From the NCBI GenBank assembly GCA_039091335.1, contig JAWCME010000002.1, positions 13,263 to 77,262 on the forward strand: 64,000 nucleotides of DNA, given 5' to 3'. Each line of letters starts with the position of its first letter. Within the stretch, counting starts at the first letter, position 1. A program made the position numbers and the translations under genes. Positions 16,905-19,845 of this stretch are shown piece after piece. Source of the DNA: Candidatus Aenigmatarchaeota archaeon. Lineage in GTDB: Archaea; Aenigmatarchaeota; Aenigmatarchaeia; CG10238-14; SCSR01. The notes below the pieces were generated by a model that worked only from the letters and a program-made list of their open reading frames with translations, did not search any database and was not told where the DNA came from.

Positions 16905-18029
16905 TCAATCTCTTAACATAAATTTATCAATTTTATTTTTTGCGTCCTCCCTTTTTTTTTGATGTTCTTTGATGAATTTTTTTATCCTTTCCGAAAGAAT
17001 TTCTTTGCACTCACCACACAACCTATTTCCTTTTTTACAATCTTCAAAAATTTTTTGCACTTTTTTATCATCTTCTTCAAATAAAAAGTAATAGTACTGA
17101 TAAACTGGGCATAATTCAGGGTTTCCACCCTTCTCCTTCTGCTCTTTTATTGTCGGTTGTCCAGCATCAAAGGCATTCATCACCTTTCTTTCAATTTTTT
17201 CTTCTGTGTCAGATGTAAATATAGCTGTTTCTGGTTCGCTCGAGCTCATCTTTCCTCCTTTTCCTAATCCAGGAAAGAACTTAGAGTGGATTTCTGCTGG
17301 CTTATAAAAATTCAGTTTTGGTGCAACATCCCTTGCCATCCTCCAGTAGGGAGATTGGTCTATTGCCGCAGGTATAAGACAGGGTATATTCTTTCCTTTT
17401 AATACTGAAGGAAGAAAGCAAGGAACCGCCTGAATTGCTGGGAAGAAAACAATTCCTATGTTTGAAGTATTTTTAAAACCAAATATTGATTTTACAGTAG
17501 AAAATGTAACATGTTTTGCAATTTGTATAGCAATCTTATACTGCGTTTTTGCATATTCTGTATTAGAGAAAATAAACGTTTTTTTATAGTCAAAGTCACA
17601 TGCTATGACATCTAGAACATTGTCATAAGTATAACCAATAGTATCTTGAAGGCTAAGCTCGGGCTTAACTAAAAACTTTTCATCATCTGTCATTTGAAAA
17701 TACAACTCTGCATCAAATTTTTTTTGTAGCCAACTTGTGAATATCCAAGGTATTAAATGTCCTATGTGTGTGTGCCCAGAAGGTCCTCTTCCTGTATAAA
17801 GAAAAAATTTCTCTCCATTTTCATATCTTTCCAATATCCAATCCATATCTCTGTGAGAGAAAAATATTTTTCTTCTCAAAAGAAAATGAAGTTCTTTCGT
17901 ATGTTTCTTTATTCTTTCCAAAAGTTCATCTGTTATTCTTTTTACGCCAAACTCCTTTATCAGTTTTTCATAATCTACTTCTCCCCTAACTTCCCAAGGA
18001 GTTACTAAAAACTTTTTTTGTTTTATCAT
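16905..18029 (-). CDS. trpS: Tryptophanyl-tRNA synthetase
   Basis: VTPWEV, YTGRGPS..HIGH, AIDQ, KMSSS. Confidence 0.95.
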   Translation of the reverse strand: MIKQKKFLVTPWEVRGEVDYEKLIKEFGVKRITDELLERIKKHTKELHFLLRRKIFFSHRDMDWILERYENGEKFFLYTGRGPSGHTHIGHLIPWIFTSWLQKKFDAELYFQMTDDEKFLVKPELSLQDTIGYTYDNVLDVIACDFDYKKTFIFSNTEYAKTQYKIAIQIAKHVTFSTVKSIFGFKNTSNIGIVFFPAIQAVPCFLPSVLKGKNIPCLIPAAIDQSPYWRMARDVAPKLNFYKPAEIHSKFFPGLGKGGKMSSSEPETAIFTSDTEEKIERKVMNAFDAGQPTIKEQKEKGGNPELCPVYQYYYFLFEEDDKKVQKIFEDCKKGNRLCGECKEILSERIKKFIKEHQKKREDAKNKIDKFMLRD

Positions 18030-18094
18030 AGCTTATTATTCATTTTGTTTTTAAATTTAAAAATTAAAAATATTTTAATTTACTTGGTGATTGT

Positions 18095-18538
18095 TTGGCT
18101 GTATTTAAGTTGGTAGTAAGCGAACCAGAAACAAAGAAGAGTTATCAGTTAGAAGTAGAGCAGAGTAAAGTTCAGTCTCTAATCGGAAAAAAAATTGGAG
18201 AAGAATTTCCTGGAGACCTTATTGGTTTAAATGGCTATATGTTAAAGATTACAGGAGGAACTGACAAGGATGGCTTTCCCATGCACCCATCTGTTTCTGG
18301 AATGGGAAGAAAAAAAGTTTTGTTGTCCTCTCCACCCTGTTTTCATCCAAGGTTAAAGGGGGAGAGAAGGAGAAAAACGGTAAGAGGAAACACAATAAGC
18401 GAAGATATAGTCCAAATAAATGTTAAGGTTACAAAAAAAGGAGAAAAGCCTTTAGAGGAATTAATCCCTGTTAAGCCCAAAGAAAAGAAAGAAGAGGAAA
18501 AAACAAAAGAGGAGATAGAAACAAAAACAGAAAAATAA
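18095..18538 (+). CDS. rps6e: 30S ribosomal protein S6e
   Basis: KITGGTDKDGFPM, GERRRKTVRGN. Confidence 0.95.
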   Translation: MAVFKLVVSEPETKKSYQLEVEQSKVQSLIGKKIGEEFPGDLIGLNGYMLKITGGTDKDGFPMHPSVSGMGRKKVLLSSPPCFHPRLKGERRRKTVRGNTISEDIVQINVKVTKKGEKPLEELIPVKPKEKKEEEKTKEEIETKTEK

Positions 18539-18602
18539 ATTACAAATAAAAATTTCATCTTTATTTTTATTTATTAGAAAATATTTGAAGGGGTGATGAA
18601 AA

Positions 18603-19845
18603 GTAACAAAAGAGATTAATCCAAAGCTAATACCTAAATGTAACATAGGTATGGTCGGACATTGCTAAAGCAACCGAAAACGTTGCGCATGGAAAGACAA
18701 GCCTAGTTGAAACAATTACTGGAAAGTCAACACTAATGCATTCTGAAGAATTGAAAAGGGGAATTACAATTCGCTTGGGTTATGCGGATGCAAAAATTTA
18801 CAAATGTATAAAATGTGGAAAATATTGTTCAAGCGAAAAATGTCCTTTCTGTTTTTCTGATTGTGAGCTTCAAAGAACAGTAAGTTTTGTGGACGCCCCT
18901 GGACATGAAACTTTAATGGCCACAGTTTTAACTGGTGCTGCATTAATGAATGGGGCGATTCTTGTGATTGCAGCAAACGAGAAGTGTCCTCAGCCGCAGA
19001 CTCGTGAGCATCTTACTGCTTTGGAAGTCGTTGGAATTAAAAATGTGATAATAGTTCAAAGCAAGATAGATTTGGTTACAGAAGAAAGGGCATTGGATAG
19101 CTATAAAGAAATAAAAGAATTCATTAAAGGAAGTAGCATAGAGAATTCCCCAATAATACCGGTTTCCTCTAAACAGAGAATAAACATAAGTTCAGTTATA
19201 GAGGCAATAGAGGAATTCATTCCAGACCCGGAATTAGATGAGAAAAAAGAACTGAGAATGCTTGTTGCAAGAAGCTTTGACATAAATAAACCTGGTACAA
19301 GCCCGGAAAAGCTTGTTGGTGGGGTTTTGGGTGGAGCAATAATTCAGGGAAAATTAAGAGTTGGGGAGGAAATTGAAATTAGACCAGGTGTAATGGTCGG
19401 CTCAAAAAGAATTCCGCTTTTTACTCATGTTTTAGGGATTAAAAAATCGAATATAGAAATGGAAGAGGCTGGTCCAGGAGGTTTGCTTGGGGTATTAACT
19501 GGCTTAGACCCATTTTTAACTAAGTCTGATTCTCTTGTGGGAAGTGTGGTTGGTCTTCCAGGAAAAATTCCAGAAACAAGAGAGGAGTTAAGAATAAATG
19601 TTAATTTACTTGAGAGAGCAGTTGGTTCAAAGGATTTGAGCGCAATATCTCCAATTAAAATAGGAGAAGAGCTTATGATAAACGTAGGAACAGCACGATC
19701 TATAGGAAAGGTTAGCTCAATTAAAAAAGATTATATTGAATTAAAACTTAAAATACCAGTATGTGCTGAGGAAAAAGAAAGGATAGCGATTTCTAGGTCA
19801 ATCCTTGGAAGATGGAGGCTTATTGGTTGGGGTGTAATAAAGTAG
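18603..19845 (+). CDS. eif2g: Translation initiation factor aIF2 gamma; exons about 18603-18660 and 18680-19845
   Basis: Spliced product reads ..PKCNIGMVGHVAHGKTSL...HSEELKRGITIRLGY...DAPGHE...WRLIGWG (about 407 aa). Start codon uncertain. Confidence 0.9.
18661..18679 (+). other. Putative BHB mRNA intron (19 nt) in aIF2-gamma
   Basis: Helix TCGG/CCGA, bulges AC^A and AA^A, inner stem TTGC-TAAA-GCAA; in-frame TAA. Confidence 0.85.

Follow-up and report, generated by a model that had tools for sequence, protein, structure and literature searches.

How can an archaeon read its gene for the translation initiation factor aIF2-gamma when a short insert splits the frame within the GTP-binding G1 motif (P-loop)? 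The question is raised by a stretch of 64,000 nucleotides (nt) from a Candidatus Aenigmatarchaeota archaeon (assembly GCA_039091335.1, contig JAWCME010000002.1, positions 13,263 to 77,262 of the forward strand), hereafter the window, whose coordinates are used throughout. The insert, ATTGCTAAAGCAACCGAAA, occupies 18661-18679 (+), is 19 nt long and follows the first base (phase 1) of a histidine codon in the G1 motif. A sequence-only reading of the window had described it as an intron. The explanation favoured here, with a probability of about 0.9, is that it is an intron of the type processed by the tRNA-splicing endonuclease EndA and the ligase RtcB, lying within the aIF2-gamma coding sequence and spliced in vivo, as suggested by the comparison of many related genes.

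The letters and coordinates given in the sequence-only reading for a 19-nt insert splitting the G1 motif proved to be correct. The upstream frame, in which an ATG lies at 18651-18653 (+), closes with GGA C at 18660, and the downstream part reads AC GTT GCG CAT GGA AAG ACA from 18680. Left unspliced, frame 0 translates to KVTKEINPKLIPKCNIGMVGHC and then stops, with histidine and cysteine as its last residues, while removal of the 19 nt gives NIGMVG-H-VAHGKT in one frame; translation confirms both halves of the earlier claim, the premature stop and the restored G1 motif. No single DNA reading frame contains an intact GHVxHGKT motif, the insert separating its two parts. The frame of the 3' part is open from 18652 to the stop codon at 19843-19845 and reads ...ENVAHGKTSLVE..., and the listed open reading frame (ORF) at 18736..19845, of 369 amino acids, starts with MHSEELKRG and lacks the P-loop, as had also been stated.

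The predicted product of the 3' part (exon 2) is an aIF2-gamma equivalog. Positions 18682-19842 match TIGR03680 with 567.6 bits (cut-off 514.5; model positions 14-407 of 407) and NF003077 with 571.5 bits (cut-off 315; positions 18-411 of 412), and the 387 codons of exon 2 are open. Only the first 13 positions of the TIGR03680 model are absent from this frame; the other frame, just 5' of the insert, holds the N-terminal strand together with the G1 motif's first half. The N-terminal peptide of the 5' exon is kept across orthologues at the protein level, with nucleotides that differ synonymously.

The genome from which the window comes (G000 in our numbering) is represented by 569,737 bases in 29 contigs, with an estimated completeness of 87%, and the window lies on contig C12. 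The sequence-only reading had held that an intact aIF2-gamma copy elsewhere would count towards its refutation; the six-frame search of the assembly with exon 2 returned one full aIF2-gamma match and no intact second copy, the two other matches being weak paralogous GTPases (E 3.4e-14 and 1.3e-5). Single matches at E<=1e-30 were likewise found in each of G001, G004, G010, G014 and G025. Logan contigs from three DNA runs of one hot-spring metagenome study cover 18562-18894 with zero differing letters, in runs that may include the source sample and are not independent support. In one of these runs (X3), 18642-18683 is also covered by another, diverged contig that is one base shorter in the hairpin loop (at 18668) and differs at three other places; it is probably from a related strain whose intron has 18 nt.

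The insert and its flanks can be arranged in bulge-helix-bulge (BHB) form (Table 1). Two 3-nt bulges on opposite strands surround a 4-bp helix, and an intron-side helix, called h', adjoins the 5' bulge, with stems of 4-12 bp among the sequences compared. The central helix TCGG/CCGA had already been named in the sequence-only reading; the inner hairpin TTGC/GCAA was recognized in addition. In each bulge, the archaeal splicing endonuclease EndA cleaves 3' of the second base. Cuts made according to this rule would remove exactly 18661-18679 and join C18660 to A18680-C18681 as a CAC histidine codon; no other cleavage position gives histidine in every sequence, and the boundaries of the insert are set by protein homology to about 1 nt. 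The chance of finding a 4-bp Watson-Crick helix and a 4-bp hairpin stem at fixed positions is estimated at about 1e-4, and because of this low prior and the recurrence of the arrangement in 11 further sequences with differing hairpins, the geometry goes beyond chance. The role of the third bulged nucleotide in cleavage by the splicing endonuclease is treated in the accessible part of a further study (PMC12397907).

The comparison with orthologues that the sequence-only reading had proposed revealed inserts at the same site in eight other genomes and in at least three metagenome contigs. The family and order set comprised 41 genomes, 39 of them with an aIF2-gamma match, and 30 loci were compared: 6 carry a same-site insert and the other 24 run uninterrupted from GH into V (G035 was uninformative, its aIF2-gamma gene being cut by a contig end). 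An order-wide search with a pattern built from the exon and intron ends matched 9 of 118 genomes, 8 of them in aIF2-gamma, against 5 for a reversed-pattern control; the remaining match (G003:C2) lies outside aIF2-gamma and is attributed to chance. A helix-agnostic pattern applied to the phylum matched 7 of 371 genomes, with 0 reversed-pattern matches, and added G267, from another order, this pattern being blind to the two Met-Leu variants G004 and G069. Among the 120 metagenome loci listed, at least three further examples (22, 31 and 31 nt) were found, not counting a doubtful locus (L170). In total, the insert is present in nine species-level genomes, with 371 of the phylum searched, plus at least three metagenome contigs. 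Among 80 aIF2-gamma loci across Archaea, 75 are uninterrupted, 2 have the insert and 3 have inteins. The pattern for the uninterrupted motif, GGNCAYGTNNNNCAYGGNAAR, also matches paralogous GTPases and could not be used to count intronless aIF2-gamma genes.

The inserts differ in length, and 5 of the 9 lengths are not multiples of three; those that are in frame carry stop codons. The helix TCGG/CCGA is identical in 9/9 genomes and in all 3 metagenome contigs, which also have matching exon ends. In all nine genomes the 5' bulge consists of AC plus one intron base, and the 3' bulge of AA or AT plus the exon A (AA in seven and AT in one of the 8 genomes tabulated). The hairpin stems, 4-12 bp long, vary in sequence, from TTGC/GCAA, TTGG/CCAA and TTAGC/GCTAA to CCGC/GCGG and a stem of 11-12 bp. 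Excision in silico produces the CAC histidine codon and NIGM(V/L)GH-V-(A/S/D)-HGK in all nine genomes.

The pairing was quantified in an alignment of eight intron-bearing sequences. Standard pairs are formed by 97.1% of the cells, compared with 2.9-42.3% after a shift of the 3' partners by 1-3 columns. In the hairpin, 4/4 closing pairs are changed on both sides and 100% of the cells are paired. The observed covariation score was reached by 0 of 500 shuffles, with the qualification that the intron-bearing sequences share ancestry and that their covarying cells are not independent events.

A further line of evidence comes from the exons. The motif exon bases (NTCGGAC before the splice site and AC after it) are present in 9/9 intron-bearing genes versus 2/24 intronless genes, which mostly use other synonymous codons at these sites. 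Such a constraint on silent sites, as read from the alignments, would make sense only if RNA structure matters. The intron proposed in the sequence-only reading is thus backed by the same-site inserts, the covarying hairpin, the fixed synonymous sites of the exon and the single copy of the gene.

On this evidence, the following course of events can be proposed. In the pre-mRNA, UCGG of the exon would pair with CCGA of the intron to form the 4-bp central helix, while the intron's own hairpin would form the inner helix, leaving a 3-nt bulge on each strand. EndA would cut after 18660 and after 18679, and RtcB would join the exons, creating the CAC histidine codon and the intact G1/P-loop sequence ...NIGMVG-H-VAHGKT.... 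An unspliced message would yield only a peptide of about 20 residues. We infer both the cleavage and ligation in vivo and the acceptance of a non-canonical exon helix by the EndA of this lineage.

Several observations, besides the shared ancestry mentioned above, weigh against this interpretation. The central helix is invariant and provides conservation only, with no covariation support. In the usual nomenclature, the strict motif (hBHBh') has an exon-side helix stacked on the 3' bulge, and the relaxed motif is termed HBh'. Here, only 0-1 bp stack on the 3' bulge, which agrees with the weak outer exon stem noted in the sequence-only reading, and because of this the motif would belong to the relaxed HBh' kind. 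An alternative register pairs AUG with CGU, with 3 bp in the window, more in some other genomes and up to 9 bp in G010, and a single base (the counterpart of 18654, G or C) stays unpaired across from the bulge; the AUG/CGU columns are invariant, being coding, and covariation cannot test that outer helix. The free minimum-free-energy fold of 18636-18705 is a different structure without a BHB motif (z = -1.45), and the BHB fold of the window's own sequence has no more than -6.5 kcal/mol at 37 C and close to zero at 75 C, for DNA that comes from hot-spring metagenomes. The thermodynamics of the single sequence would thus lend the motif no support; it is the comparative data that argue for it.

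The searches for EndA in the assembly and for RNA coverage add to this side of the balance; RtcB, the EndA of relatives and the rRNA inserts speak for the favoured reading. EndA (PF01974) was not found in the 87%-complete assembly, and a tblastn search of the same assembly with 14 ORFs from the EndA loci of 12 relatives gave a best E of 0.1. We assume that the missing gene reflects a gap in the assembly, from which 13% of the marker set is absent. EndA was found in 40/40 relatives, mostly as one single-domain match in an open frame of about 180-236 amino acids. An RtcB gene was identified (PF01139, with 284.5 bits over positions 1-209 of the 426-position model), which runs into the end of contig C25. 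None of the runs recorded as RNA covers the intron site; the coverage by a run labelled metatranscriptomic (X5) is confined to 18000-18512 and parts of 19206-19339, with nothing over 18536-19205. The rRNA genes of this genome contain inserts of the same geometry (Table 1), and therefore some enzyme handling such motifs must be at work. The small-subunit rRNA match spans 1746 nt for a 1478-position model, and there may be more inserts in it. The tRNA genes called by ARAGORN in the whole genome (25, many with odd intron calls) were not used. An enzyme of relaxed specificity, tolerating the weak exon helix, as the sequence-only reading had supposed, is a reasonable suggestion; in the part available of one study, alpha4-type EndAs of DPANN with an extra loop are reported to accompany disrupted tRNA genes (PMC5829648).

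The start of the gene is a further difficulty, one that taken alone could be read as decay. There is no in-frame ATG, GTG or TTG between the TGA at 18597 and the ATG at 18651, and the conserved aIF2-gamma peptide begins right after that TGA. GTG 18593 and ATG 18596 lie in the -1 frame, which stops at 18617-18619, and reading the gene would require a +1 shift within the A-run (18599-18602) or else initiation at the non-canonical ATT 18615. Across the start region (18590-18620), the three DNA runs agree without variants. G025, G004 and G069 also lack an in-frame canonical start and need a +1 shift at an A-run or an ATT or ATA start. The canonical start is absent in 4/9 intron-bearing versus 1/24 intronless genes (Fisher p = 0.013), a link that was not relied on, as it involves about three independent lineages and its sole intronless case, G034, is the sister of G025. 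In G267 (L143, G267:C55:8654-11711), the frame of the 5' exon is open for 503 codons upstream, which may be due to chance or to its fusion with the gene upstream.

Could the gene simply be a decaying pseudogene, inactivated by the 19-nt insert and with the absent start codon as a second lesion? The frameshift and stop caused by the insert, the lack of an in-frame canonical start upstream of 18651 and the reduced genomes of DPANN, whose hosts might supply functions, would all fit. This is nevertheless very unlikely: it would have to be the sole aIF2-gamma locus in the genome that decays, and this locus retains 387 open codons that score above the equivalog cut-off and a 5' exon peptide conserved through synonymous changes. 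Moreover, the differing inserts of nine genomes all keep the BHB pairing and restore both the histidine and the frame. An artefact of assembly or sequencing, to which a fragmented metagenome bin of 29 contigs might be prone, has a practically negligible probability and is effectively refuted already, since three runs gave contigs that agree fully over the site, and 8 other species-level genomes and 3 unrelated metagenome contigs have homologous inserts.

The two other alternatives accept a working gene and differ in how the insert is dealt with. The ribosome might cope with it during translation, without splicing, by a programmed +1 frameshift or a bypass like that of gene 60. The +1 frame is indeed open across the insert, and a stop soon after a possible take-off site, with a hairpin in the gap, resembles known bypassing. 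Read-through, however, would add 6 or more residues inside the P-loop and change its first glycine to glutamate, and a bypass would lack matched take-off and landing codons flanking the insert. The exon would end with a CUU (leucine) codon instead of histidine in G010 and G025, stops stand in the path in these two and in other in-frame inserts, and both processes leave the covarying stem and the exact 3-4-3 geometry without an explanation; we regard translational rescue as highly improbable. There is an equally slight chance that the insert is excised from RNA by an agent other than EndA and RtcB, such as another nuclease or a self-cleaving element. The failure to find EndA in the assembly and the non-canonical exon helix speak for such an agent, but no known ribozyme intron is as short as 19 bases, the geometry matches EndA substrates exactly, the rRNA inserts of the same genome share it and EndA occurs in 40/40 relatives. 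Splicing by EndA and RtcB is thus retained as the preferred explanation.

The history of the insert was followed in a maximum-likelihood tree of 31 aIF2-gamma proteins, seven of them intron-bearing, with G069 (because of its intein) and G267 left out. This gene tree is poorly resolved, with 15/28 inner branches open. The seven intron-bearing rows need seven changes, at least five of which are forced by well-supported branches, and all intron-bearing genes placed in supported pairs have intronless sisters, the pairs being G014/G007, G001/G015, G025/G034 and G056/G030. The introns share a core adjoining the central helix. They may have descended from one ancestral intron that was lost precisely many times, or have been gained laterally again and again. 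An examination of co-conversion tracts gave no sign of recent transfer: intron-bearing genes have in common only the exon bases that the motif requires and differ at the neighbouring synonymous sites.

The P-loop is also a site of protein-level insertion. Inteins placed after the P-loop lysine (between GK and T), 17 nt downstream of the intron site, were found in G069, G038, L066, L078 and L124. G069 (L054:3-1502, minus strand) carries an intein (PF14890) with a LAGLIDADG domain (PF14528) alongside the BHB intron, and in this gene one loop appears to be interrupted at both the RNA and the protein level. In G038 (L265:747-3539, minus strand) the intein insert is of about 545 amino acids and ends with ...HN before T.

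A second candidate lies in the gene for tyrosyl-tRNA synthetase (TyrRS) of the same genome (Table 1). Exon 1 matches NF006330 positions 1-43 and exon 2 positions 46-338; the insert lies in the region of the nucleotide-binding signature (HIGH), and its exon helix is weak. Inserts at the same TyrRS site were found in 3/30 loci (G000, G020 and G015), among which the central helix shows a compensatory change. In the genome-wide search, a naive BHB scan gave 25,073 matches, which is the chance level in a genome of 33% GC; an ORF-fusion filter left 1,572, and a stricter one 123, most of them false, so that of all genome-wide candidates only aIF2-gamma and TyrRS stood up. Candidates in AlaRS (C9) and an APC-permease (C1) lie inside intact ORFs, and those at C12:75316-75341, C16:3642-3690, C25:25062-25098 and C12:35839-35863 are apparently adjacent genes or junk frames. 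Separately, the gene of an ArlJ/FlaJ-like membrane protein is split into two ORFs by 53 nt with a weaker BHB-like motif (G000:C24:28044-28096, L268:1245-1297, minus strand), its halves matching NF004705 positions 3-163 and 192-443. A third intron, a frameshift or a genuinely split gene could account for this.

A broader and doubtful proposal, to which we give only a minor weight, is that these cases belong to a lineage-wide class of mobile mini-introns that target, in genes essential for translation, the codons of nucleotide-binding signatures (the aIF2-gamma P-loop and the TyrRS HIGH region) and are repeatedly gained and lost. Under this proposal, the introns may derive from homing elements and have lost the endonuclease, or may hitch-hike with such elements, since a site 17 nt downstream in the same P-loop is used by LAGLIDADG inteins. 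Splicing may also compete with translation initiation and so gate the synthesis of an initiation factor, because the intron lies about 20 codons into the gene and 4/9 genes lack a canonical start.

Table 1. Positions of the predicted intron elements, of the exons and neighbouring gene, and of related inserts (window coordinates unless a genome or locus handle is given).
Feature	Position	Strand	Basis
Gene directly upstream, which we take from its sequence to be that of ribosomal protein S6e; its 3' end overlaps the aIF2-gamma start in most relatives	18095..18538	+	ORF list
Putative 5' exon (KVTKEINPKLIPKCNIGMVG plus first base of the His codon)	18600..18660	+	in-frame open translation
Exon AUG able to pair with CGU 18681-18683, G18654 unpaired	18651..18653	+	constrained and free folds
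Exon strand TCGG of the predicted central 4-bp helix H	18655..18658	+	pairs with CCGA 18674-18677
5' bulge A, C, A; probable 5' splice site between 18660 and 18661	18659..18661	+	geometry
Putative BHB mini-intron, 19 nt, ATTGCTAAAGCAACCGAAA	18661..18679	+	frames and same-site inserts in relatives
Predicted intron hairpin h': TTGC 18662-18665, loop TAAA, GCAA 18670-18673	18662..18673	+	covarying stem
Intron strand CCGA of the predicted central helix	18674..18677	+	pairs with TCGG
3' bulge A, A, A; probable 3' splice site between 18679 and 18680	18678..18680	+	geometry
Putative 3' exon: remaining two bases of the His codon, then VAHGKT... as far as stop TAG 19843-19845	18680..19845	+	translation, TIGR03680, NF003077
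Candidate TyrRS mini-intron, 21 nt, in-frame stop	G000:C1:30935-30955 (= L266:3436-3456)	-	full BHB geometry
Insert of BHB geometry in the small-subunit rRNA of the same genome, 56 nt	L046:2264-2319 (G000:C1)	-	geometry
Inserts of BHB geometry in the large-subunit rRNA of the same genome, 17 and 31 nt	L047:3315-3331; L047:1720-1750 (G000:C1)	-	geometry
Insert lengths in aIF2-gamma (nt): G000 19, G001 20, G014 22, G010 22, G004 24, G069 24, G056 30, G267 31, G025 33			

The closest known counterpart is the intron in the cbf5 pre-mRNA, which was reportedly studied by Watanabe (2002) and Yoshinari (2006) and is also treated by Yokobori (2009; PMC2738675). The splicing of cbf5 was reportedly shown by experiment, whereas that of aIF2-gamma is predicted here from sequence comparison. 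The cbf5 gene encodes a pseudouridine synthase in Crenarchaeota, in contrast to a translation initiation factor with its G1 GTP-binding motif in a DPANN/Aenigmatarchaeota-like archaeon. According to the accessible parts of two sources (PMC2738675, PMC10485636), the cbf5 intron is likewise short, located within the coding sequence, of relaxed BHB form, cut by the tRNA-splicing endonuclease and ligated, and it is likewise patchy among related species, with gains and losses; in the portion of their text available, the cbf5 authors tied their case to a hetero-oligomeric EndA. As far as the accessible text of the literature goes, cbf5 of Crenarchaeota is named as the only BHB intron in a coding sequence, with HVO_1309 of Haloferax as a case in the 5' untranslated region (PMC7714728, PMC10485636). 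The HVO_1309 mRNA of Haloferax volcanii likewise serves the archaeal splicing endonuclease as a substrate that is neither tRNA nor rRNA, with both in vivo and in vitro support in the part of the paper available, but its intron lies in the untranslated leader and interrupts no frame (PMC7714728).

The BHB introns of archaeal tRNA and rRNA share the geometry of a 3-nt bulge, a 4-bp helix and a 3-nt bulge, as well as the enzymes. Unlike them, the aIF2-gamma intron has an exon strand constrained by codons, and its excision must restore the reading frame. The IRE1-dependent splicing of XBP1/HAC1 mRNA is a non-spliceosomal process of eukaryotes. It also involves a very short intron, a structure-recognizing protein endonuclease, ligation by RtcB in animals and a change of frame; it differs in its endonuclease (IRE1), its twin stem-loops and its role as a regulated stress switch. 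The participation of RtcB in XBP1 splicing is named in the abstract of a further paper (PMC8718801).

Our literature search, with most subscription journals outside it, returned no report of a BHB intron in aIF2-gamma or in a coding sequence of DPANN, and the aIF2-gamma intron appears to be new in print, as far as this could be searched. A 2023 review, in the part accessible, considered that more such introns probably remain to be found (PMC10485636).

The aIF2-gamma intron would add a comparative-sequence case of archaeal mRNA splicing from a different superphylum and in an essential gene. Its position in the GTP-binding loop means that any mis-splicing would be lethal. Gene callers truncate genes of this kind, and essential genes consequently look broken or short in DPANN bins. 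The scattered distribution of the intron, together with the TyrRS intron and the inteins of the same loop, would provide a concrete system for studying how BHB introns spread. If the intron is spliced as proposed, EndA and RtcB would become essential for making the translation machinery itself, beyond tRNA and rRNA.

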